Sequence record: MK524178.1
Direction: 5' to 3' (one strand)
Source: Escherichia phage PHB12
DNA: 64,000 nucleotides
Positions within the stretch are counted from its first letter, which is position 1; each line of letters starts with the position of its first letter. This document shows, piece by piece, positions 15,706 to 29,834 of the stretch. Made by a program: the position numbers and the translations under genes. The notes under the pieces were generated by a model. It did no database searches and had not been told where the DNA came from. It saw only the letters and a list, made by a program, of their open reading frames with translations.

Positions 15706-15954
15706 TTATTCTTTTTCGCGAATAATAATTACTTGTTGAGGCTGCTGAGCAGATTTCTTTTCGGCAACGATAGACCAAATTAAAGTTCCAATCCAACCAA
15801 TCATCGTCCAGTTAAAGAGTAAAGATACAAAGAAGATTGCTGTTGTGCTTTTTGTGCCACGAATAAGTGCGATTACCCAAGGCAACATGTAAATGATGAT
15901 TGAACCAATACCTGCGATTAAAACTGCTACTGAACTAGCTACGAATAATTCCAT
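15706..15954 (-). CDS. small inner-membrane protein, Imm-like
   Basis: 82 aa, two TM helices, motif PWVIALIRG similar to superinfection-immunity family. Confidence 0.45.
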   Translation of the reverse strand: MELFVASSVAVLIAGIGSIIIYMLPWVIALIRGTKSTTAIFFVSLLFNWTMIGWIGTLIWSIVAEKKSAQQPQQVIIIREKE

Positions 15955-16015: not shown

Positions 16016-16384
16016 TTAATTAAATTTGTTTAAACGTTCAATACACTGGACGTAGTTATTCGCAATTTGTTTCTGGGTAGGCTCTTTACCAGTTGTTTCA
16101 ACATGGCGAATGAATGCGATTTCAGTAGCCTGTAGACAATGTTCTTTAACGCGTTGTTCTTTTGACAATGCTACAGTATCAGAATCACGATAACGTTGAG
16201 CATGAGCATCAGCTTGAATCATTCGATTGCCTACAGTAACCGGGTCTTCCACTTCAACTTTAGGTTGGTCGTACTGTTTAACATTCGGATTGTAAATCAG
16301 TTGGCCAACGTTATTAGGGATAAAGCCATGGGCACCACATCCAGTTAATCCAAATATCATTGTTAAAGCGATTAATTTTTTCAT
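16016..16384 (-). CDS. lipoprotein
   Basis: Signal peptide with lipobox LTGC (MKKLIALTMIFGLTGCGA). Confidence 0.5.
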   Translation of the reverse strand: MKKLIALTMIFGLTGCGAHGFIPNNVGQLIYNPNVKQYDQPKVEVEDPVTVGNRMIQADAHAQRYRDSDTVALSKEQRVKEHCLQATEIAFIRHVETTGKEPTQKQIANNYVQCIERLNKFN

Positions 16385-18927: not shown

Positions 18928-19269
18928 TTAAAAGAATTTAAATTTTTTCTTGGTCCGTTCATTAAAAGCTTGTTGTACTTGCATTGTAACACATTTTTCA
19001 ACATGTGGTGCAAGTTCTGCTTTTCTGTCCTGGTCAAGAACTGCAAAGTCCATTACGATTTTACCATCAACCCAGTCTAGTTTTGTAATATAGACTATAT
19101 GATGAGAACCATCTTCAAGTGTAATCAGAATCTCTTGAATGACATTTTCCATTGCTGAACGGATAATTTTAAGAGATTCATTAAACACTCGTTCTTTGCG
19201 AATGTCTTCCCCTTCCGAAGAAGGGGATTCATCAACGATTTCTAGATTTAAATCATCGAGATTATTCAT
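18928..19269 (-). CDS. hypothetical protein at gene 40 position
   Basis: Between 41 and uvsX as T4 gene 40; start moved to MNNLDDL. Confidence 0.4.
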   Translation of the reverse strand: MNNLDDLNLEIVDESPSSEGEDIRKERVFNESLKIIRSAMENVIQEILITLEDGSHHIVYITKLDWVDGKIVMDFAVLDQDRKAELAPHVEKCVTMQVQQAFNERTKKKFKFF

Positions 19270-20434
19270 CGAAATCTTCCATTTCGTCAAGGTCGTTTTC
19301 TATATCTGCTGCAGACGGAGCATCAGAAGTTTTAACTGGAACTTTAGTTGTTGCTTTGCAATTAATAAGGTCGTTAACAGCGTCATCAACTTCTTTAATA
19401 GAAGAGATAGCACCTAGTTTATATTTAGTTTCAATTGCATCTCGGAAAGGTTTGTGTTTAAACAAAGGTCCCCAGAATTCTACACAATCAGTAGCTTTAG
19501 CACGCCATGATTTCTCTTCACGAATCATTTCGCCTGTTTCTTCGTCAAGGAATTCTCGAGCATACCACCCGGCTTTAGGCTTAACTACAAAACCAATTTC
19601 AGTTGCCATTTCTAACAAGCCACTGAATGGGTCAATACCACCATCAAAATTAACCGTGATCGGGAAAGTAGATTTTTCTTTAACGGTTCGAGATTTTTCT
19701 GCTTTCAACGTGAAGTCATAACCGGTCAATTCTGTGCCTTCTTTAACCTGACGTTTAGAGATAAAGAATACAGTGTTAGCAGAGTAAAGAATACCTGTAC
19801 CACCACCCATAATCTCTTTAGGATATAGACCGCCGATTTCCATTGCTGTATGGTTGATTGCAACACATGGAATATCTTTAATAGTCAGATAAGGAGTCAC
19901 AATGCGGAACAGAGATTTAAGTGCCTTAGCACGAGACATATCACCTACGACTTTCTCGTTCAATGCATCTTCGGTTTCTTTCTTAGATGCAGTATTACCA
20001 ATCGAGTCAATAAAGATAATAACTTTATCACCACGTTCAATCGCGTCAAGCTGATTAGTCATATCAACTTTAAGTTGTTCGACAGATTGAATCGGAGTAT
20101 GAACTACACGGTCTAAATCAACACCCATTGAACGAAAATAAGATTCTGAAGCACCAAATTCTGAATCATAGAACAAACAAATTGCATCTTTATATTTCTT
20201 CATATATGCTGCAACCATGGTCAGTCCAAACAACGTTTTAAAGTGTTTAGAAGGAGCAGCAAAAATAGTTAAGCCTGATTGCAACCCAGCATTCAGTGCA
20301 CCACCTAATGCAATATTCAACATCGGAATACGAGTAGGGACTTCATCGCGATTATTAAACAACTTAGACTTAGTCAAGTCTGCAGTCATTTTAGAAGTAG
20401 AAGCTTTAATCAGACGAGATTTTAAATCAGACAT
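19262..20434 (-). CDS. uvsX: UvsX recombinase (RecA/Rad51 family)
   Basis: 390 aa; MSDLKSRLIKASTSK... N-terminus and RecA core match T4 UvsX. Confidence 0.9.
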   Translation of the reverse strand: MSDLKSRLIKASTSKMTADLTKSKLFNNRDEVPTRIPMLNIALGGALNAGLQSGLTIFAAPSKHFKTLFGLTMVAAYMKKYKDAICLFYDSEFGASESYFRSMGVDLDRVVHTPIQSVEQLKVDMTNQLDAIERGDKVIIFIDSIGNTASKKETEDALNEKVVGDMSRAKALKSLFRIVTPYLTIKDIPCVAINHTAMEIGGLYPKEIMGGGTGILYSANTVFFISKRQVKEGTELTGYDFTLKAEKSRTVKEKSTFPITVNFDGGIDPFSGLLEMATEIGFVVKPKAGWYAREFLDEETGEMIREEKSWRAKATDCVEFWGPLFKHKPFRDAIETKYKLGAISSIKEVDDAVNDLINCKATTKVPVKTSDAPSAADIENDLDEMEDFDE

Positions 20435-20533: not shown

Positions 20534-21082
20534 TTAACGAGCCCATTTGATAATTTCTGTAATCAAATTATTACGTTCGCTTGCATTAAATCCTATAACT
20601 TTGTTAGCACCATCATGATTAAGTAATTGATACGTTTGGATTTTGTTATGAATTGCAAACTCTTCAAAATATGAAATGACTGTATTAAAACCAAATGAAG
20701 ACAAAGTAATAAGGTCGTCTTCAAAACTTTCAGTCATTTCGTTACGTGTTAAAATAATTGTGAACACATCATGGTTTTGGCAAAGACGAACATAATCCTG
20801 TTCATAAACGTCAAGAACCGAGTCCACATCTTGTCGAATACGTCCATAAACCCAGTTACTAATATATCCACGGTCTAACAGATAAATCTTAGTAGGGTCT
20901 AAATAATTCAACATCGTTTCGAAACAGCCAACTTCATTTCGAGACTTAACATCGAAACGTCCATCAACTGTTCGTTTAGGGAAATCAATCTTTACATATC
21001 TTTCACTAATTTCCATTATGTCATTAATGAAAGTTGTTTTACCAGCATTATCCGGGCCATCTACTAAAATAATTTTAGCCAT
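20534..21082 (-). CDS. P-loop kinase-like protein (nucleoside/nucleotide or sugar kinase fold)
   Basis: 182 aa; Walker A GPDNAGKTT at residues 9-17; DRGY lid-like motif; not a T4 gene at this position. Confidence 0.5.
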   Translation of the reverse strand: MAKIILVDGPDNAGKTTFINDIMEISERYVKIDFPKRTVDGRFDVKSRNEVGCFETMLNYLDPTKIYLLDRGYISNWVYGRIRQDVDSVLDVYEQDYVRLCQNHDVFTIILTRNEMTESFEDDLITLSSFGFNTVISYFEEFAIHNKIQTYQLLNHDGANKVIGFNASERNNLITEIIKWAR

Positions 21083-21083
21083 T

Positions 21084-21983
21084 TTATTCCTCGATTATGA
21101 CATCTTCGTATTTAGGTATATTATACGGTGAAGAAATTAAAGCATTAAAGTAGATGAACTCACCAAGACCTGGATGGAATACTTCTTCAGGATTTTCGAA
21201 ATATTGAATCTTCGGCCGTCCTTTAAGAATTTGATAGTACTCAGTTTTAGTTGGTTTAAAAATTCGAATCAGTGCTTCTTCAGGATACTTATTTCTGTCG
21301 AAGCTATTATTTGGATCGGTTATATAAAGCGGTTGACCTAATTGAATTGCACATTCAACCACTTGTTCAAAACGATAACACGGGTCACTAATTCGAAATG
21401 GATGAAAAATACCATCTAGATGAATAGGAGCCAAATCACCTACAAGACGCTGCATGATGGAAGGACGTATAACTTTCTGCGTTACGATAATCTTATTACC
21501 ATCTGCACCTGCGTTAACCAGCACTTCTTTTTGACGTTCATTCAACACAGTAGTTTGAAGTGAACGATTAACAGACAACATGTCGGTTTTTAAGAATTCG
21601 TCAATATAAAAACGTGGTTTATTAGAGTCTGCAGTAATATTGAAATTGAATTCTACGTCAAAAGTGCCGTCATATCCAGTGATATCTGTGATTAGAAAAT
21701 CACAATCATAATAATCAATTAATGAATCAACCACAAATTCATTTTCAGACCAGAAATATTTACGAGTGTTATATGCGTTATCTTTATACCATAATGGAAC
21801 AAACTTAAATTCTGGGAAAAGACGTTCACATTCTTTAATATCAGATGCATTACGTGGATATGTAATTACATCACCCGGATTAGCACGGTGCAAATGAAGT
21901 TGGAAGTTGCCATCCTTAAGGATAGCATACTGTCCAGTTTCATAAGACCGCATACTCAAGATAGGTACGCGGAAAATAGCCAT
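21084..21983 (-). CDS. hypothetical protein at the beta-glucosyltransferase position
   Basis: 299 aa; no resemblance by eye to T4 Bgt; tightly packed between P-loop gene and gene 42 homologue. Confidence 0.5.
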   Translation of the reverse strand: MAIFRVPILSMRSYETGQYAILKDGNFQLHLHRANPGDVITYPRNASDIKECERLFPEFKFVPLWYKDNAYNTRKYFWSENEFVVDSLIDYYDCDFLITDITGYDGTFDVEFNFNITADSNKPRFYIDEFLKTDMLSVNRSLQTTVLNERQKEVLVNAGADGNKIIVTQKVIRPSIMQRLVGDLAPIHLDGIFHPFRISDPCYRFEQVVECAIQLGQPLYITDPNNSFDRNKYPEEALIRIFKPTKTEYYQILKGRPKIQYFENPEEVFHPGLGEFIYFNALISSPYNIPKYEDVIIEE

Positions 21984-22699
21984 TAGTCAAGGAATCCTTT
22001 AACATAATCAAAATCACGTTCAAACACATGGGCACTTACCATGGTATGAGTATAATCACCAACTTCTACACCACATTCGTTAGCGATATAATGAAGTAAT
22101 TTTCCTTGGAGATAAAAATCCAACTGCATAACAACAGCACAGTTCTGAGAACGCATATGACAGTGGGTATAAAGCTTACCATCACGAATATAATAAGTCA
22201 CTGAGTCAGTACATGGATATTCAAGTGTTTCATCCGAATCAAGCAAAGCCTGATCTGAACTTTCAAGAATTTGAAACACAACTCTTCGTGAATTAGGTTT
22301 CTCTTTAAGTTCTTTTAGAAGAGTTGGTAACTGGGCCGCAATGCGAGGACCATAGAAAGTGTTGAAGTTCGCAGGCAAAGCATCTGATTTTGGTTTAGAA
22401 ATAAATTTAGCGACGTTAGGATATGCCTTAAATGCTTCTTCTGCATCAGTACCACCAGAAATCATAAATTTCCAGAAATCTTCAGCATATTCATAAGAGA
22501 TGCGATTAATACGTGGGTCGGTCATTTTGAATGATGAAGGGGTATCAACAACTACTGTCATAGACCCAATTTCATTACAACGTCCAATACGAGAGTCAGT
22601 AACGAACTGTGGATTTTCTAAAATTTCACGATTGACAGCTTTAAATGCGGATTGAAAATCTGCGGCTTTAATATATTTCATTGTGTTATGTTTTCCCAT
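21983..22699 (-). CDS. 42: thymidylate-synthase-fold pyrimidine C5 hydroxymethylase (gene 42-like, divergent)
   Basis: 238 aa; catalytic-Cys block YPCTDSVTYYIRDGK...HMRSQN parallels T4 gp42 FMCTNTVQYLIRD...NMRSND. Confidence 0.6.
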   Translation of the reverse strand: MGKHNTMKYIKAADFQSAFKAVNREILENPQFVTDSRIGRCNEIGSMTVVVDTPSSFKMTDPRINRISYEYAEDFWKFMISGGTDAEEAFKAYPNVAKFISKPKSDALPANFNTFYGPRIAAQLPTLLKELKEKPNSRRVVFQILESSDQALLDSDETLEYPCTDSVTYYIRDGKLYTHCHMRSQNCAVVMQLDFYLQGKLLHYIANECGVEVGDYTHTMVSAHVFERDFDYVKGFLD

Positions 22700-22978
22700 G
22701 TTTACCTCAATACAGTTATTATATACTCAATTCATAAAAGCTTATTTGAATTTCTTAGCGATGTTGATATAACGTAAAGCTTCAGCATCGATACTTCCAA
22801 GAACACTATGAAGAAATGCATCAGCGTAGTATTCTAGTTGAACAGGTTTCTTTAATCACTTTAGCCGCTTTAGTTTCAAACAGGCCCATAAGGGCCTTTT
22901 TAAGAATTTGTTCGTTGCTGTTAATTTTCATAGTCAAAATCTCTTCATTAAGTTGGTGGTTAAAAGTTTTTCTAGAAA

Positions 22979-24139
22979 TCATTCCGGGTACCTCAAAGCG
23001 TCATCAGAGTTAGTTATATCAATAATAGATATAGAGTTTTCTGCTAACCCATTTTTAGATAACTGACGTTTATAATATCTTTCACAATATGTACACGTCG
23101 TCCCGCAGATTTCATTAGCACAATCGAAATCTGGATGTCTGAACCACCTTTTTTCTAAAAAGCCATCTAACAAAGAGGTTTCAATATTTACTGTATGTGA
23201 AAACTCGGTTTCGTTTTCAAGAGTGAAAATAGTCTCTAAAGGCTTCCACAATTCCAACAAATTACCTTCAAATTTTTCAGAAGCATAAGCTTCAAGAACT
23301 TTCAAAATGTAGTCTGTGCTACCTGTACGTCCTGAAACTTTGAATTGAGTGATACCAATATCATTATAAAGTTTCAAATCTTGAGGACGAACAAAACGAG
23401 TTCTCAACCAGTTAAATGGGTCTGTATCACGAGCTTTAATACAGTGTTGCATTGGATATCCATTTAAGGATTTGGCATCATCTACTGTAACGTCGGTGCT
23501 ATGGAAAATATAGCAAGAGTCACGATAGCTACAATGTGTTGTATACCCTTTACCAGCATTAGAACAGAACTCATTTACAAGAACTTCAAATATTATATTG
23601 TTCTTATTACAAAACTCTGCTGCGCGTTTCAGGAAAGAAACTGAACGGTTCTTATGAATTCCACAGCAGACCTTTTTGATATTATATTGGTCATGCAAAT
23701 ATTTGATTTGAGTTACAGCATCAACATGTAGAATTGTTGAAACTTCAATCTCAATGTCTTTATTGACTTCACGAACAATTTCCATAACAACAGGGTTAGC
23801 GATAGTAATACGCCATACGCCTATTGACCAAAGATACTGAACATAATCCTGAATAGCTTTCTTCTTCCACTCAACTAGTTCTCTTTTTGAACCAGGATTT
23901 ATCGTGTTGAGTGTATAGTTAAAGCAAATACCTAATTCGTTACAACGTTTAACATAATCTTCTAACATCTTTTTGTCAACGTCAGGAAGCCTAAAATCAG
24001 GTCTGGCTGCTACAAAAGCCATTTCTCTTGTAGAGCCGTATACTTCGTTTATCAAGCTATTAGGATAAGTTTTATTGAGCTCTACGATTTTATCAAGAAG
24101 AGCTAAATCAAAATTCGTTCCGATTTTAAAGGTATTCAT
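22979..24139 (-). CDS. cysteine-cluster enzyme-like protein, unknown function
   Basis: 386 aa, 14 Cys including C-terminal CANEICGTTCTYC (C-x3-C-x3-C-x2-C); possible Fe-S or Zn site. Confidence 0.5.
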   Translation of the reverse strand: MNTFKIGTNFDLALLDKIVELNKTYPNSLINEVYGSTREMAFVAARPDFRLPDVDKKMLEDYVKRCNELGICFNYTLNTINPGSKRELVEWKKKAIQDYVQYLWSIGVWRITIANPVVMEIVREVNKDIEIEVSTILHVDAVTQIKYLHDQYNIKKVCCGIHKNRSVSFLKRAAEFCNKNNIIFEVLVNEFCSNAGKGYTTHCSYRDSCYIFHSTDVTVDDAKSLNGYPMQHCIKARDTDPFNWLRTRFVRPQDLKLYNDIGITQFKVSGRTGSTDYILKVLEAYASEKFEGNLLELWKPLETIFTLENETEFSHTVNIETSLLDGFLEKRWFRHPDFDCANEICGTTCTYCERYYKRQLSKNGLAENSISIIDITNSDDALRYPE

Positions 24140-24193
24140 TTTTGCATCTCGCGTTAATTGTTGCGATGGTTTTTGCAGGTCTTACTTAAATTA

Positions 24194-24595
24194 TTATAGA
24201 TTCGGTTTATATGATTTAAATGTTTCGAATTCGCCTTTATTCATAAGAGCTTTGAATTCGTCAGGACGCATAGCTTTGTCGTCGATAATCCAATCATATA
24301 CTGGTTTATGTGTTAGCAAATTATGGTACTTCAATCCAATGTTTGCCAAGTTCTGAATCAGACTTGGGAGAATGTCAATTGCTATACGACCAGGACCGAC
24401 TGACTTCATACCGCGAGCAGTGTAAAGAGTTATTGTATGCCCTGCATCATACAGGGCATTAATGGCAGACACCATTTCGACGTCTGGTTTGAAGTTCACG
24501 TAATCACGATTGTTATTCCACTCTGTTATACAATCATCGACATCAAAACAAAGATTAAGCATGTTTTCTACACGGTGCATTAGATTCGTTCCCAT
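24194..24595 (-). CDS. HAD-superfamily phosphatase-like protein
   Basis: 133 aa; motif I FDVDDCIT and motif II TLYTARG. Confidence 0.5.
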   Translation of the reverse strand: MGTNLMHRVENMLNLCFDVDDCITEWNNNRDYVNFKPDVEMVSAINALYDAGHTITLYTARGMKSVGPGRIAIDILPSLIQNLANIGLKYHNLLTHKPVYDWIIDDKAMRPDEFKALMNKGEFETFKSYKPNL

Positions 24596-26265
24596 TGATG
24601 AGTGATATCGCCACCGATTGGACGATAGGAAACACCAGTTTCTTTATCAGTTAGTACCCATTTACCAGGATTTTTTGTAATCAGAGTAGCCGTTACAGGT
24701 TCTGCTACGTCATAACTAATAGAGCCGTCTTGAAGTACACGGCCCATGTTACGTAATTGCTTAGTCAGAAGTTCCATACCTTTATAATATGCGGCTACCG
24801 CTTTAAGTGGATTATTCTTGAAATAACCACCTAATGCAATCCAGATAATTGCTACAGCCAAATGATGATATTCATTAAACGAACTCATCTTTCCATATTT
24901 GTAAACTAATGGATTGATGTTAATAGTCACATTACAAGTTGTTTCATCAATAGTAAACTGTCCCCAGGTCGGATTAGCGTTGAATTCATCATAACCTGAA
25001 ACAGCATAAAGCACTTTAGCTTCATCGTACAATTTTGGCCCATAAATCTTGGTTTCGCCAAAATATCCACGAGGGTCGATAAACTTAACTTCGCCGTTAT
25101 CAGTAATCATAGTATTACTGAAGTTCGGGTCACCATGAATAACAGAGTACTGTCCCTGAGAACGATTATGATAACGAATAAGGTGTTCTAAAGCTTGTTT
25201 CAGCATTGGCTTCAGACGTCCAATCTTAGTGTAGTTCACATGTGTGATTTTACCAAATGAATCAATCAATGGTTGAATGCTTTCACAACGATCAATAACT
25301 TTCGTATAGAATTCTTTAGTGAAATCACGACGAACAGTTTCAGGACTTACAAAATAAGTGTCTGTGCTGAATTTCAGTGCATCTAAAATTGCATCAACAA
25401 TTTGTGGACGAGCAAGACTCGATTTGGATTTAATATATTCAAATGCCGGCTTACCTTTAATGCGTTCCATTTCAAAGTTATTTTCATTAACAGAAACTAA
25501 CTGAGGAACTGAATCTGATTTCACTTTAAGATACCATGAAATCTCATCTTTCTGAAGAGCTCGGCCCTGTTCGGTTAATGCGAATTTAGTTACAGTTTCT
25601 TCACCAATTTCAACTGCATTAAAACTACGATTAAGTTCACGAACTTCATGAGCTTTTTCAAGTTTAGGCATATCACCTAAATCAATTAGATTCATAAGCT
25701 CTGATTTATTGAATGCGCTGCCGTAAAGGAATTCTACGAAATCACGTCCTTTGCAGTATTCATGAATTTCCTCATCAGTAGAACCCATATAGAATTCCCA
25801 GTCTTTGAACTGATAAATTCCTACAACATTACCACCTGTTGAACCTACGTTAGTGATATTTTCACCGTCGAAATTATATCGACATTCGTCACCCTTAACA
25901 TAGATTGCGTTAACATTCCAAGACCATGAGCCAAAATCAGGAATAATATCACACCAGTTAACAATTACATTATGGCCGTCTAAATCTTTGTGTAATTTAG
26001 CAAGAGCATAAGCAGAACCATACGCTTCATCAACTGTACGAATAGTCACATTGAACCCTTCTTGCTCACAATAAGCTCGAACAGTTTCAGCAAATTTTGA
26101 ATGAACTACTACAATAATTTCATCTGCGCCAAGGTCAGAATAAATTGTATACAAATTGCTCAGAATAGTGTCTTGTTTATAGTTAACAAGCACCTTAGGA
26201 ATATGATGCGTTATTGGATACAAACGAGTTGCCAGTCCAGCACCAAGAATAACAGCTTTTTTCAT
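24580..26265 (-). CDS. bifunctional sugar-1-phosphate nucleotidyltransferase / APH-like sugar kinase
   Basis: 561 aa; N-terminal ILGAGLATRL (NTP-transferase G-x-G-x-R) and C-terminal HGDPNFSNTM...IDPRG (kinase catalytic/DFG-like). Confidence 0.65.
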   Translation of the reverse strand: MKKAVILGAGLATRLYPITHHIPKVLVNYKQDTILSNLYTIYSDLGADEIIVVVHSKFAETVRAYCEQEGFNVTIRTVDEAYGSAYALAKLHKDLDGHNVIVNWCDIIPDFGSWSWNVNAIYVKGDECRYNFDGENITNVGSTGGNVVGIYQFKDWEFYMGSTDEEIHEYCKGRDFVEFLYGSAFNKSELMNLIDLGDMPKLEKAHEVRELNRSFNAVEIGEETVTKFALTEQGRALQKDEISWYLKVKSDSVPQLVSVNENNFEMERIKGKPAFEYIKSKSSLARPQIVDAILDALKFSTDTYFVSPETVRRDFTKEFYTKVIDRCESIQPLIDSFGKITHVNYTKIGRLKPMLKQALEHLIRYHNRSQGQYSVIHGDPNFSNTMITDNGEVKFIDPRGYFGETKIYGPKLYDEAKVLYAVSGYDEFNANPTWGQFTIDETTCNVTININPLVYKYGKMSSFNEYHHLAVAIIWIALGGYFKNNPLKAVAAYYKGMELLTKQLRNMGRVLQDGSISYDVAEPVTATLITKNPGKWVLTDKETGVSYRPIGGDITHQWERI

Positions 26266-26306
26266 GTTGTGGTCCTCATTGGTAAGTAGGAGTATTGTAC
26301 ACTATT

Positions 26307-26450
26307 CTAGTTAAAGCATTCATACTTTGCTTGTAGTCCAATCATAATCCATCCGATTATAAGAGTCGGAATCATTACTGGAGCCGTTAAGCTCCAGTAG
26401 ATAGTCATGACAAGCATCAATAGTAAAAGTCCTATTGTTATTGCTTTCAT
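26307..26450 (-). CDS. small hydrophobic ORF coupled to isomerase gene
   Basis: 47 aa MKAITIGLLLLMLVMTIYW...; ATG overlaps stop of 26447..27082 (ATGA). Confidence 0.3.
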   Translation of the reverse strand: MKAITIGLLLLMLVMTIYWSLTAPVMIPTLIIGWIMIGLQAKYECFN

Positions 26451-27082
26451 TGTTCGCCTCGTAACATGGCACCTAGTGCACCGCCAGGGTGGAACTTAAG
26501 GAAGTCATTAGAGGTAAATCCACGTTCAGACGAAAGGTTGATAGCAAACGTATCGATAAGCGCTAACAACAATGTAGTGGACATGGTCGGAGCCAGAGAA
26601 TTCTCATCGACCTCTACTGCGATGCCTGTACAGAACGTATAATCAAAAAGAGCTTCGTATTCTTGTGGAATGTCTGGGTTACAATGCAACAGAATCTGTT
26701 TGACGTTCGGACGAATCATTTTAAGATGCTTAGCCACGCCTATCATTTCTTCAGTTTTACCGGAACGACTAATATGAATCAACACATCATTAGGCGCAAT
26801 GAATCCTGCATCACCGTGAGAATAATGCCCAGTGTTCAAGTACATACTCGGGATACCGAGTGAAGCAAATGTCTCAGAAGCTTTAGTTGCAATATTAGCA
26901 TTCTTACCAACACCTGTAATAATTACTCGGCTTTCATAATTACTAAGTCCAGGGCGTCGAAGAGTTTCTAGAATAGCATTATAACGAGCAGGGTTTTGAC
27001 TAATTACTTTGGCCATAGCGGCCAAAGAAGAAGCTTGTTTTATGATTGCGTCAATAGCGATAGTAATAGGAGTAGTTTTCAT
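26447..27082 (-). CDS. SIS-domain sugar-phosphate isomerase (KdsD/GutQ/GmhA-like)
   Basis: 211 aa; VIITGVGKNANIATKASETFASLGIPS and SRSGKTEE resemble SIS phosphosugar-binding motifs. Confidence 0.65.
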   Translation of the reverse strand: MKTTPITIAIDAIIKQASSLAAMAKVISQNPARYNAILETLRRPGLSNYESRVIITGVGKNANIATKASETFASLGIPSMYLNTGHYSHGDAGFIAPNDVLIHISRSGKTEEMIGVAKHLKMIRPNVKQILLHCNPDIPQEYEALFDYTFCTGIAVEVDENSLAPTMSTTLLLALIDTFAINLSSERGFTSNDFLKFHPGGALGAMLRGEQ

Positions 27083-27122
27083 ATTTCTCTCATTTAATTA
27101 GTTTGCCGTCAATGTCATTATA

Positions 27123-29834
27123 TCAAAAATCGAACATATCGAACAGAGATGCTTTCTTCTCGTAATCGAGTTTCGCTGCTGATGTGAATCCTTCAAGTGG
27201 TTTAATAAATGTCTTCTCAAGGAGAACAGTGTAGTCCATCCAATGAAGTACGTCGTCTTTAATTAAATCTGTGATTTCAGTGCCAGAAGGCCATGCGATA
27301 CATTTATCACCGAATGGGTTTCCTTCACGTAAAGGCAGAACATATACTTTTTCACCTTCTACAACTTGTGGTGCATCGATATTACCTTTGATAGCCCGGT
27401 TATACGTCAGAATTCCACGAATATGGAATGGGCATTTGGGACCAGGGAATCCACCTACGTCATATTTAGCAATGTTATTCGCAGAAGATACCGACGCGAT
27501 GCTAATATAATTCAATTGACGGAATTCTTTTTCAAACTCTTTAAAATATTCTTGTAATGATTCTTCACCTTCTTGAAGCATACGACGAATACATTCTTTA
27601 AGAGCTTTCTGTACTGCTTTAGGAGTCGAAGATTTCTGAGTCTCTAGACCCATGATTTTGAGTTTAGGCTCAGCGTAACGAGTACCTTCCATATCCCACA
27701 CGTTTAATGCATAACGTTTCTTACCAGTCCAGAATCCACCAATACCTTTAGAACCTAATGGAGGCCCAGCGATAGCTTCTCGGTCCATGAACATTAAGTG
27801 TTGTTTATTGTTCATGTATTCACACATTTCACGGAAACCTCTATCAATAGCTGGTTCCATACGTTCACGTGCAAACTTATCTAAGAAGTCTACCCAATGG
27901 TTGGTATCACGGAATTTAGATTCACCAACCTTATCGATAATTTTATCAGCAGATACGTAAATAGAGTCTGTATCACCATAAAGAACGAAAGCTTCACCTT
28001 CTGTACCACAAACTTCATTCAGATATTCATTAACTTTACGTTCAATCCACTGTAAAGCCATTTGACCAAATGTTGTGATTGCAGTAGCATTACGCAAATC
28101 ATAATAACGGAACCAAACGTTTCCAAGTGCACCATAAAGTGAGTTGATAAGCAATTTACGGTTAATTTGAGCAGTCATACCTGCAACTTCAGTACGTTGA
28201 GCTCTAAACAACATTTCATTAAGAGATTTAGCAGACAACTTTTTAATCTTTTCTTTAATCTCATCACTGAAGTCGAAACGATAATCAACATCTAATGGTT
28301 CGTCAACAGAAAGATTAGGATTATGCAATGCCTCTTTAATTATTTCACCATTACGTTGAGCTGCAAGCATGTAACCTTTATGTTCTTTACGTTGATTAAA
28401 GACCTTAGTGATTTCAGTTGGAACTACACCATCACGGTCTTTATAATACATCATGCCGTTAGGAGAGCAACTGTACACATCTGAAGGACGTTCAGCAACA
28501 GCGTTAATATAATCATGCAATGGAGCTACTTTAAACGTTCCTGCTATTGTTTCTGGGCTAATATTCACTTGGCGAATAATACTTGGATACAGAGATGTAA
28601 GGTCGAAACTCATTACATATTTGTATCGATTCGGAATAGGTTCCTTAACAAAAGCGCCGGGATAAGGTTGAACCGGGTGAGAACGACCTTGTGGAATCAC
28701 CTTGTTCTGCTCTTTAAGGCTATTAAAAATAATAGCATCCCATGTTTTAATTGGACTAAACACAGATTGAATCTGTATCTTAGCATAATAACCCATGTCC
28801 AAACTCAAGTTGATGAACTGACGCTTAGCATCAATTTGCAATACACGGTACACGTCGATAATGTTATAAGAAATATATCGTTGGTGATTGCTTTCACGAA
28901 GCTTAGAAATAGGGCCGTCATATTTCAGTTTACCAACGTTCAATTCAAATTCTGAAATGTAATCCAGAGAATATGATGGTTGATTGGTAAAAGAGAATTT
29001 TTTGTAAAGGTCAATGTAATCAAGAACAGAGATACCGAACAATGTAATGATTTCACGAGAACCATACATGTTTTCGATAACTTTAACACGAGTTTTACGA
29101 TGTGGTGATAAACGTTTCGCAGTAGATTCGCCAAAAATATTCTTGATTCGGTTATACACATACGGAATATCAAATGACTCAACGTTCCATCCAGTCAAAA
29201 TGACAGGAGTTTTCTGTTGCCAGAAGTTGAGATATTCCATCAACAATTCTTTTTCGTTATCGAACGGCATATAAATGATTTTATCGATAATTTCAGATGG
29301 AACTTCATCACCACCTTGTTCTTGAAGCTTAGCAGCGATTTCAATAGACCATTCTTCTACATTACCATATGGAGAATTCAATAGATCAAATACATAGAAC
29401 CTGTCGTCAATTGAGTCATAATGGGTGATAGCATCAATCGGATGTTTTGCTTGTGACGGCTCAGGGAACCCATCCGGAGATGTTACTTCGATGTCGAAGT
29501 TAGCCACACGAATTTTTGTATGGTCATATTTGATTTCATAGTTATAAGTGTCAGACAAATACGCCAATTTGAAATCGTCCATGCCAAGTGCTTCAAGTCC
29601 GATATCTTCCATGCGTTTAATCCATTGGGAGGCATCACGCATATTGGCGAACAACTTACGAGTACACGGCTTACCGTAGATATCGAAATATTTCGTAGCC
29701 TGACTTTCTGGGCAATGAGCAAACAGTGATGGTTTATATTCTACTTCACGAGTACGTTCACGGCCATTAGAATCGATGTAACGTTCAAAAATTGAATCAC
29801 CAATCTGTTCAACCGTTAAGTAAAATTCTTTCAT
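27123..29834 (-). CDS. 43: DNA polymerase (family B)
   Basis: 903 aa; MKEFYLTVEQIGDSIFERYIDSNGRERTREV...; exo motifs FDIE and YNIIDV, pol motifs DLTSLYPS and YGDTDS; matches RB69 gp43 from memory. Confidence 0.97.
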   Translation of the reverse strand: MKEFYLTVEQIGDSIFERYIDSNGRERTREVEYKPSLFAHCPESQATKYFDIYGKPCTRKLFANMRDASQWIKRMEDIGLEALGMDDFKLAYLSDTYNYEIKYDHTKIRVANFDIEVTSPDGFPEPSQAKHPIDAITHYDSIDDRFYVFDLLNSPYGNVEEWSIEIAAKLQEQGGDEVPSEIIDKIIYMPFDNEKELLMEYLNFWQQKTPVILTGWNVESFDIPYVYNRIKNIFGESTAKRLSPHRKTRVKVIENMYGSREIITLFGISVLDYIDLYKKFSFTNQPSYSLDYISEFELNVGKLKYDGPISKLRESNHQRYISYNIIDVYRVLQIDAKRQFINLSLDMGYYAKIQIQSVFSPIKTWDAIIFNSLKEQNKVIPQGRSHPVQPYPGAFVKEPIPNRYKYVMSFDLTSLYPSIIRQVNISPETIAGTFKVAPLHDYINAVAERPSDVYSCSPNGMMYYKDRDGVVPTEITKVFNQRKEHKGYMLAAQRNGEIIKEALHNPNLSVDEPLDVDYRFDFSDEIKEKIKKLSAKSLNEMLFRAQRTEVAGMTAQINRKLLINSLYGALGNVWFRYYDLRNATAITTFGQMALQWIERKVNEYLNEVCGTEGEAFVLYGDTDSIYVSADKIIDKVGESKFRDTNHWVDFLDKFARERMEPAIDRGFREMCEYMNNKQHLMFMDREAIAGPPLGSKGIGGFWTGKKRYALNVWDMEGTRYAEPKLKIMGLETQKSSTPKAVQKALKECIRRMLQEGEESLQEYFKEFEKEFRQLNYISIASVSSANNIAKYDVGGFPGPKCPFHIRGILTYNRAIKGNIDAPQVVEGEKVYVLPLREGNPFGDKCIAWPSGTEITDLIKDDVLHWMDYTVLLEKTFIKPLEGFTSAAKLDYEKKASLFDMFDF

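Follow-up and report, generated by a model that had tools for sequence, protein, structure and literature searches.

Arabinose has been found on the DNA of phage RB69 (Thomas et al. 2018, PMC6024577), and two candidates, the SIS protein ORF055c and ORF53_52c, a protein of the 561-residue type described below, were proposed in that work for UDP-arabinose synthesis within an eight-gene module located between the polymerase and UvsX genes. More recently, RB69 DNA has been reported to contain mono- and di-arabinosylated 5-hydroxycytosine and not hydroxymethylcytosine, and the ThyA homologue gp48 of RB69 was shown experimentally to make 5-hydroxy-dCMP (Lee et al. 2026, PMC13326640). In the same paper, gp55, gp52:53 and gp51 are assigned to the conversion of ribulose-5-phosphate to nucleoside diphosphate (NDP)-arabinofuranose, the isomerase role of gp55 being assigned by homology. 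PMC13326640 also summarises the work of He et al. 2026 on phage HY126; according to this summary, AfhE is a kinase for D-arabinose-5-phosphate and AfhF a Mg-dependent phosphatase that converts arabinose-1,5-bisphosphate to arabinose-1-phosphate, and kinase, phosphatase and pyrophosphorylase lead in this order from arabinose-5-phosphate, through arabinose-1,5-bisphosphate and arabinose-1-phosphate, to UDP-arabinofuranose. The present analysis deals with the corresponding genes of Escherichia phage PHB12, in a 64,000-nucleotide stretch of record MK524178.1 (hereafter, the window), and with a micro-open reading frame (micro-ORF) that lies among them.

The region very probably represents the sugar-activation half of a cluster through which an RB69-like (Mosigvirus) T-even phage hypermodifies its DNA with arabinosyl-5-hydroxycytosine. 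All the features involved are found on the minus strand between DNA polymerase gp43 and UvsX (see table), in the same gene order as RB69 gp45-gp55, Bas46, and HY126. Amino-acid identity to the HY126 counterparts is 100% for the SIS protein, the micro-ORF product, and the HAD protein, 97% for the 561-residue protein, and 98.7-99.5% for the U32, ThyA-like, glycosyltransferase, and kinase proteins; the gene order of the two loci is identical. In view of these identities of 97-100%, and of the PDB entries identical to some of these proteins, the window proteins can be regarded as being, for practical purposes, the characterised ones. The arabinose module is already known, near-identical phages having been characterised biochemically and structurally: the genes were proposed in 2018, while the enzymology, the structures, and the corrected base chemistry date from 2025-2026, and finding the module again in the window adds no new biology. 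What the analysis adds are annotation points, namely the probable start of the HAD gene, a RefSeq mislabel, the identification of the micro-ORF with T4 42.1, and a middle-promoter motif located in the end codons of the micro-ORF. Functionally, the module accounts for the ability of RB69-like phages to produce a nucleotide sugar that is not made by E. coli; arabinose on every cytosine is a barrier to restriction enzymes and also influences CRISPR and type IV defences.

Megablast places the window in the RB69 group (Mosigvirus), and positions 24100-27200 are 97.8% identical to RB69 and ~98.8% identical to phages AV112 and F2, both Mosigvirus-like. At least 80% of this segment is covered by 153 phage records, and in none of the megablast matches does identity reach 99% over the whole stretch; as judged from these alignments, the window phage is therefore an isolate of its own, within a species group that has been sampled very well. 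Phage F2 is filed under Tequatrovirus, although its sequence is Mosigvirus-like.

Features of the arabinose locus in the PHB12 window and in related loci (positions are those of the window; the prefix L denotes loci from other phages).
Feature	Position	Strand	Basis
Putative single-domain D-arabinose-5-phosphate isomerase, RB69 gp55 orthologue	26447-27082	-	Pfam, PDB, NCBIfam, phrog, HY126 identity
Bifunctional 561-residue enzyme, orthologue of RB69 gp52:53 and HY126 AfhE	24580-26265	-	Pfam, PDB, HY126 identity
Small cap-less HAD phosphatase, 128 residues, orthologue of RB69 gp51 and HY126 AfhF	24194-24580 (probable start)	-	PDB, phrog, start comparison
47-residue hydrophobic micro-ORF, orthologue of T4 gene 42.1 (RB69ORF054c, phrog_3610)	26307-26450	-	Conservation, phrog, tblastn
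MotA box and -10 motif TGCTTTA-N12-TACAAT, T4 middle-promoter type	26294-26318	-	Pattern enrichment, conservation
Peptidase_U32-family protein, RB69 gp50 orthologue	22979-24139	-	Pfam Peptidase_U32 E 6.3e-11; next gene downstream of HAD
Frameshifted remnant of small ORF after U32 (RB69ORF049c, phrog_8601)	22742-22982	-	Comparison with RB69, Bas46
U32 and chorismate mutase pairs in other loci	L004:2347-3857, L005:3053-4455, L006:2460-3865, L007:2189-3865, L014:5001-6403, L015:5001-6391		Pfam CM_2
Thymidylate-synthase homologue, 5-hydroxy-dCMP synthase, RB69 gp48 orthologue	21983-22699	-	Pfam Thymidylat_synt E 1.9e-15
299-residue putative DNA arabinosyltransferase 1, RB69 gp46:47 counterpart	21084-21983	-	Position and length as in Bas46, HY126
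182-residue P-loop nucleotide (thymidylate-like) kinase, RB69 gp45 orthologue	20534-21082	-	Synteny, PMC13326640
UvsX	19262-20434	-	Neighbouring ORF
DNA polymerase gp43	27123-29834	-	Neighbouring ORF
RegA, gp62, gp44	Around the locus	-	Surrounding ORFs
imm homologue, 99% to RB69 Imm	15709-15954	-	Next to sp, ~10 kb from micro-ORF
imm.1 homologue, 97% to RB69	16019-16384	-	Next to sp, ~10 kb from micro-ORF

The sugar-activation enzymes

The SIS gene encodes a 211-residue protein, in which the original prediction had noticed the motifs GVGKNANIATKA and SRSGKTEE; both are present, and the Pfam SIS model is matched with an E-value of 1.7e-10. The protein had been likened to arabinose-5-phosphate or to phosphoheptose isomerases, and only the first likeness stands. 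Its top PDB matches are all arabinose-5-phosphate isomerases (3etn at 5.5e-25, 5uqi, and 2xhz; range 5.5e-25 to 6.5e-19), phrog_5670 ("arabinose 5-phosphate isomerase") is matched at 2.3e-116, and the best NCBIfam families are KpsF, GutQ, and KdsD, while the PDB and NCBIfam searches returned no match to the GmhA family. TIGR00393 (KpsF/GutQ) is matched at 2.2e-32 over positions 2-153 of its 268 only, with 112.7 bits for a cut-off of 203.7; the score falls below the cut-off because the protein has no CBS pair, the C-terminal tandem CBS domains of the full-length architecture having no counterpart in the 211 residues. In the alignment to 3etn and 5uqi, the segments GVGK, SHGD, SRSGKT, and FHPGG fall opposite their counterparts in these enzymes. 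The active-site residues known from KdsD, namely the Lys of GxGK, the His of HGD, the His of HPGG, and a Ser/Thr-rich phosphate loop, are thereby conserved. The protein is 100% identical in amino acids to HY126 XAN60481, and the conversion of ribulose-5-phosphate to arabinose-5-phosphate is assigned to it by homology.

The 561-residue protein is composed of two domains. The N-terminal domain displays the sugar-1-phosphate nucleotidyltransferase signature LGAGLATRL...IPKVL, matches Pfam NTP_transferase (residues 3-99, E 8.5e-10), and has a PDB relative in 1jyk (E 2.1e-5). The C-terminal domain, resembling APH and choline kinases, carries the Brenner-type motifs HGDPNFSN and IDPRG; structural matches of this kinase domain to 3ham and 6hwl are mentioned in PMC13326640. 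The whole protein shares 545 of 562 positions (97%) with HY126 XAN60479, encoded at the same genomic position, and its RB69 orthologue gp52:53 is assigned in PMC13326640 within the conversion of ribulose-5-phosphate to NDP-arabinofuranose. The gene is intact in the window, as is that of the 299-residue protein, unlike in the RB69 GenBank record, where the split of the 561-residue type of gene is a sequencing error (PMC6024577).

The longest HAD ORF (24194-24595, minus strand) comprises 133 residues. The HAD motifs I and II initially pointed out in it (FDVDDCIT and TLYTARG) are present, and alignment to 1xpj and 9iqw discloses motifs III and IV as well; in the numbering of the 128-residue form, the four motifs are centred on D13/D15 (FDVDD), T55 (YTARG), K93 (THKP), and D100/D101 (IIDDK). 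The protein is 100% identical to HY126 XAN60478, and PDB 9IQW is 100% identical over 128 residues counted from the second ATG (E 1.8e-87), an entry that we infer to be AfhF. More distant matches include PDB 1xpj (E 4.9e-10), phrog_1238 (E 1e-42), and the best NCBIfam match, TIGR01689, a capsule biosynthesis phosphatase family (E 3.8e-13; 49.5 bits for a cut-off of 162); a Pfam search gave no domain, even at E-values up to 1.

A 16-nucleotide overlap between the HAD and kinase genes had been reported. It exists for the longest ORF, yet it is probably an artefact of choosing that ORF, and not the real boundary. The upstream ATG lies inside CAA-TGG-GAA-CGA (Q-W-E-R), the codons that end the preceding gene in all relatives; it is out of frame in Serratia phage LC53 and replaced by GTG in Yersinia phage fHe-Yen9-01. 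The ATG at 24580 is set in TAATG, with a 1-nucleotide overlap with the stop of the 561-codon gene, and an ATG abutting or overlapping this stop is also found in RB69, HY126, CIP9, and PEi20. The HAD starts of LC53 and fHe-Yen9-01 are even nearer to the DxD motif, and the ATG at 24580 or its positional equivalent exists in every relative. Furthermore, the 128-residue form is the one annotated in RB69, HY126, and RefSeq, and corresponds to the crystallised construct 9IQW. Because the upstream ATG is not conserved, and the 24580 start is both conserved and used in the annotations and in 9IQW, the HAD gene is placed, with good probability, at the position given in the table.

RefSeq orthologues of the HAD gene (e.g., L003:597-983, L005:4504-4890, L006:4502-4888) are systematically labelled "phosphoheptose isomerase", a name derived from phrog_1238, or "capsule biosynthesis protein". 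The former, which designates GmhA, is a wrong label for this gene, the fold being that of HAD and not of SIS. In LC53, PEi20, and fHe-Yen9-01, a segC-like homing-endonuclease gene is located between the U32 and HAD genes (L004:3859-4497, L006:3867-4505, L007:3867-4505); it is absent from the window.

Taken together, these enzymes would form the following pathway. The SIS protein would isomerise host ribulose-5-phosphate to D-arabinose-5-phosphate, as its homology suggests. The C-terminal, APH-like kinase domain of the 561-residue protein would then phosphorylate C1, yielding arabinofuranose-1,5-bisphosphate, from which the small HAD phosphatase would take off the 5-phosphate. The resulting arabinose-1-phosphate would be joined with UTP by the N-terminal nucleotidyltransferase domain to give UDP-arabinofuranose, and phage glycosyltransferases would finally move the arabinose onto the 5-hydroxycytosine of replicated DNA, providing protection against restriction. 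The three steps from kinase to nucleotidyltransferase are the biochemistry reported on HY126 proteins that are 97-100% identical to those of the window, as relayed second-hand by PMC13326640. Activation of a pentose at C1 by an isomerase, a HAD protein, and a kinase-nucleotidyltransferase had been foreseen by the original prediction, which named the right types of enzymes and missed DNA, through arabinosylation of 5-hydroxycytosine, as the destination of the sugar.

Several points weigh against this scheme. The phage protein is assigned its isomerase activity via homology only. The Pfam matches of the kinase domain (Fructosamin_kin, EcKL, and RIO1) are sub-threshold, with E-values of 0.002-0.009, and this domain alone has no match among PDB sequences at E-values up to 10; by sequence alone, the kinase assignment is weakly supported. 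The placing of the kinase before the phosphatase comes from the second-hand summary of He et al. 2026 in PMC13326640, the text of which calls the carrier only "potentially UDP-arabinose" and Table 1 of which still labels the steps in the other order.

This other order had also been assumed initially, as a dephosphorylation followed by a re-phosphorylation. The HAD protein would first dephosphorylate arabinose-5-phosphate to free D-arabinose, on which the kinase would then act at C1, before nucleotidylylation. APH-like anomeric sugar kinases such as AmgK indeed act on unphosphorylated sugars. The set of isomerase, kinase-nucleotidyltransferase, and HAD protein mirrors, on the contrary, that of GmhA, HldE, and GmhB, which proceeds through a bisphosphate intermediate. 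In Table 1 of PMC13326640, the entry for gp51 reads "dephosphorylates Araf5p to Ara" and that for the C-terminal domain "phosphorylates Ara to Araf1p"; this is contradicted by the AfhE and AfhF enzymology summarised in that paper's own text, for proteins 97-100% identical to those of the window, in which the kinase acts first and the phosphatase second. We therefore consider the phosphatase-first order unlikely.

The product names found in RefSeq and GenBank for such genes ("capsule biosynthesis protein", "kpsF", "phosphoheptose isomerase"), as well as TIGR01689 being the best NCBIfam match of the HAD protein, might point to an auxiliary metabolism devoted to host envelope sugars, either 3-deoxy-D-manno-octulosonate (Kdo) or capsule, of the KpsF/KdsD kind, or ADP-heptose. 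However, the "phosphoheptose isomerase" label is carried by the gene with the HAD fold and not by the SIS gene, whose product matches arabinose-5-phosphate isomerases and not GmhA, and neither a Kdo-8-phosphate synthase nor a CMP-Kdo synthetase gene is found within the cluster. Moreover, the genes are embedded with those of a 5-hydroxy-dCMP synthase and of a DNA glycosyltransferase, and Mosigvirus virion DNA contains arabinosyl-cytosine (PMC13326640). An envelope-sugar function is thus extremely improbable, and the activation of arabinose for DNA modification is retained.

The micro-ORF and the middle-promoter motif

Between the isomerase and 561-codon genes lies a 47-codon hydrophobic ORF, the ATG of which had been seen to start on the isomerase stop codon (ATGA); this is the case, and a GAGG Shine-Dalgarno sequence is located six nucleotides upstream. 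The peptide matches phrog_3610 over 47 of 47 positions (E 4.5e-27) and has no match in Pfam, even at E-values up to 1. The stop-coupled 47-codon ORF is conserved across five genera, with 18 of its 47 residues invariant, and its substitutions at codon positions 1, 2, and 3 amount to 398, 197, and 668. It is, on this comparative evidence, a real conserved gene and not a chance ORF, and its translation is predicted. With a grand average of hydropathy (GRAVY) of 1.37, charged residues limited to K2, K42, and E44, and two hydrophobic stretches parted by a conserved TIYW..xxP segment, the peptide has a shape compatible with a small inner-membrane hairpin.

The micro-ORF had been included in the sugar operon, and could accordingly be imagined as a dedicated subunit or a membrane anchor of the arabinose pathway, tethering for instance the isomerase or the kinase. 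Its coupling to the isomerase stop, through ATGA or TAATG, is kept in Mosigvirus, Winklervirus (LC53), Kanagawavirus (PEi20, and CIP9, where it is not annotated), and Tegunavirus (fHe-Yen9-01). However, the family also occurs in glucose-type T-even phages, where its members are equally coupled behind imm. In T2, RB55 (T4 species), and VR26, a homologue carrying the annotation 42.1 lies between imm and gene 42, with an overlap of 4 nucleotides at the imm stop, and none of these three intervals contains a SIS, kinase, or HAD gene. The homologues annotated 42.1 in T2, RB7, and VR26 share ~59% identity with the micro-ORF, and its RB69 counterpart is itself annotated "similar to T4 42-imm intercistronic region". 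By tblastn, the micro-ORF is found in 771 phage records versus ~180 in which the enzyme block is detectable at the DNA level. Conversely, Acinetobacter phage DLP2 possesses contiguous SIS, AfhE, and HAD genes with a 67-nucleotide gap and no 42.1-type ORF. A subunit or anchor role is, in view of this distribution, very unlikely.

The location of imm bears on the history of the interval. In T4, T2, and VR26, imm directly precedes 42.1; in RB69, as in the window, imm and imm.1 lie next to sp, away from the micro-ORF. The 43-42 interval of Mosigvirus is therefore a rearranged one, and the micro-protein is not tied to Imm either. A truncated imm was considered as the identity of the micro-ORF and rejected, a separate imm homologue being present in the window. 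The 42.1-type gene would have kept its place in the 43-42 interval when imm left it and the sugar genes arrived, and it would be translated through coupling to whichever gene lies upstream. The micro-ORF is, as judged from its distribution, a separate resident of this interval, a predicted small inner-membrane protein of the gp42.1 family, and not a component of the sugar pathway. A literature search on T4 42.1 and imm.1 yielded nothing.

The original prediction had drawn an operon around these genes, which all lie on the same strand. A single promoter serving all of them is unlikely, given a motif of the T4 middle-promoter type that precedes the kinase gene. Its MotA box resides inside the end codons of the micro-ORF, GAA TGC TTT AAC TAG (E-C-F-N), and its -10 element in the 41-nucleotide spacer before the 561-codon gene. 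In the window, 14 occurrences of the pattern TGCTTYA-N11-13-TANNNT are found, versus 2.1 +/- 1.35 expected (~7-fold), and none of 100 shuffles reaches 14. The motif is found at the homologous position in 8 of the 8 arabinose-type loci examined, with an invariant -10, whereas the rest of the spacer varies among loci. In T4-type phages, on the other hand, 42.1 genes end with ...ECIN (TGCATCA) and abut gene 42, and the motif is absent. RB69 encodes motA and asiA, both of which lie beyond the window. The kinase and phosphatase genes are thus probably served by a predicted middle promoter of their own besides read-through; in view of the conserved motif between the micro-ORF and the kinase gene, an operon with one promoter is probably too simple a description of the block. 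A generic sigma-70 promoter scan was not enriched (17 sites for 18.2 expected), and no convincing minus-strand terminator was detected inside the block.

Other elements were observed around these genes. Directly past the polymerase stop (27083-27122, minus strand), TGATATAAT is an extended -10-like sequence lying ~25 nucleotides 5' of the isomerase start; a good -35 is lacking, and the isomerase and the micro-ORF may have a promoter here. In LC53, CIP9, and PEi20, the polymerase and isomerase genes are separated by an additional gene of 140-175 codons, annotated "signal peptide" in LC53. In the spacer following the micro-ORF, an inverted repeat, GGTACAATGGATGTACC, overlaps the -10 in Kanagawavirus, Winklervirus, and Tegunavirus (L004-L007, e.g., L005:6582-6625); the Mosigvirus spacer (26266-26306 in the window) has only a degenerate version, AGTGTACAATACT. 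A second MotA-type motif occurs at 21120-21144 (minus strand), ~38 nucleotides upstream of the gene of the 182-residue nucleotide kinase.

Downstream genes and the U32 protein

Past the U32 gene, the cluster continues with the base synthase and a glycosyltransferase. The ThyA homologue is near-identical to PDB 9IQC, 9IR2, and 9IQU (E 2e-162) and, as judged from this identity, is the enzyme making the base that receives the arabinose. The 299-residue protein is 98.7% identical to that of HY126, and has no sequence match in Pfam or the PDB; its assignment as arabinosyltransferase 1 originates from Table 1 of PMC13326640. The split of its RB69 counterpart, gp46:47, is a sequencing error in the RB69 record (PMC13326640, PMC6024577).

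The U32 gene is listed in PMC13326640 only as a "sugar or heterocycle reductase". The protein is at least 80% identical in 221 phage records from many genera, and 82-88% identical in Klebsiella, Proteus, Providencia, Serratia, and Shewanella phages, some of which are without the SIS gene. In six loci of other genera, the U32 gene is followed, with a 4-nucleotide overlap, by a type II chorismate mutase gene, whose CM_2 domain scores above the Pfam cut-off (E 1e-8 to 1e-11). In Mosigvirus, CM_2 is no longer recognisable by Pfam in the small ORF occupying this place. In the window, one extra A in an A-run, as compared to RB69 and Bas46, breaks the 79-codon frame of this small ORF into a 53-residue ORF and an out-of-frame remainder, and the remnant matches phrog_8601 over positions 1-50 of 79. 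HY126 displays the same A insertion plus another. Either gene decay or an error in sequencing the homopolymer may account for the frameshift.

U32 proteins such as RlhA, which forms 5-hydroxycytidine in 23S rRNA, TrhP, and UbiU/V are prephenate-dependent, O2-independent hydroxylases. In the phage protein, the phage-invariant Cys 192, 203, 209, and 233 fall in a region aligning with the Fe-S Cys of UbiU, UbiV, and RlhA, two of the four being in register in a MAFFT alignment. The link to E. coli RlhA is provided by this alignment and the Pfam model only; BLASTP gives no significant match (E 0.048) of the phage U32 protein to E. coli RlhA, and the U32 protein has, like the glycosyltransferase, no sequence relative in the PDB. 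It is possible, and put forward here tentatively, that, in phages infecting facultative anaerobes, U32 and chorismate mutase form 5-hydroxycytosine anaerobically, by a prephenate-dependent route requiring no O2; if so, the cluster would encode more than the pathway so far published, and the pair would back up the O2- and flavin-dependent ThyA-like synthase. Among Acinetobacter phages, U32 was not seen, though 57 of them carry the isomerase. Acinetobacter is a strict aerobe, and the U32/chorismate mutase pair is absent from its arabinose-type phages. The idea was not found in the literature searched, to which He et al. 2026 did not belong; the Thanatos paper makes no mention of U32 or chorismate mutase, and a transposon-mutagenesis preprint on Bas46 and LC53 contains no gene-level essentiality data for the cluster.

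Comparison with known systems

The closest systems are RB69 gp55, gp52:53, and gp51, together with AfhE and AfhF of HY126, which are orthologous to the window proteins, agree with them in gene order and orientation between gp43 and uvsX, and present no functional difference from them. The micro-ORF is likewise closest to T4 42.1, a 49-residue protein encoded between imm and gene 42. Both belong to the same family, are located alike with respect to gp43 and the gene-42 homologue, are coupled in the same way to an upstream stop, and share the motif IY[WY]...P.MIPT..GW...LQ.KYEC[FI]N. They differ by their upstream partner, the isomerase in the window versus imm in T4, and by their length, 47 versus 49 residues.

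Among cellular isomerases, KdsD, KpsF, and GutQ are the best sequence matches of the SIS protein and share with it the SIS fold, the GxGK and HGD motifs, the phosphate loop, and HPGG. Whereas they possess tandem CBS domains, the phage protein is devoid of them and adopts the architecture of the single-domain isomerase of Bacteroides fragilis (3etn); furthermore, its product would feed DNA modification, unlike the Kdo role of KdsD, KpsF, and GutQ.

In the AmgK-MurU and LicA-LicC systems, the same two folds as in the 561-residue protein phosphorylate and then nucleotidylylate their substrate, and the N-terminal domain of the phage protein has MurU and LicC among its nearest matches in structure and sequence. 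The phage enzyme, unlike these systems, fuses both activities in one polypeptide, and its kinase substrate would be already phosphorylated at C5; a phosphatase step is therefore needed in between.

The same chemical logic governs the ADP-L-glycero-beta-D-manno-heptose pathway (GmhA, HldE, and GmhB). There, a SIS enzyme isomerises a ketose phosphate, phosphorylation at the anomeric carbon yields a bisphosphate, the distal phosphate is taken off by a HAD phosphatase, and the same bifunctional protein that carried out the phosphorylation performs the nucleotidylylation. Foldseek matches of gp51-type proteins to GmhB are reported in PMC13326640. This analogy explains the misleading database labels mentioned above. 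The two pathways differ, however, as follows: the sugar is a pentose in the arabinose module and a heptose in the other; the SIS protein is of the KdsD/KpsF type and not GmhA; the kinase is APH/protein-kinase-like instead of ribokinase-like as in HldE; the transferase is GlmU/RmlA-like instead of cytidylyltransferase-like; and the nucleotide and acceptor are UDP and DNA in the arabinose module, versus ADP and lipopolysaccharide in the heptose pathway.

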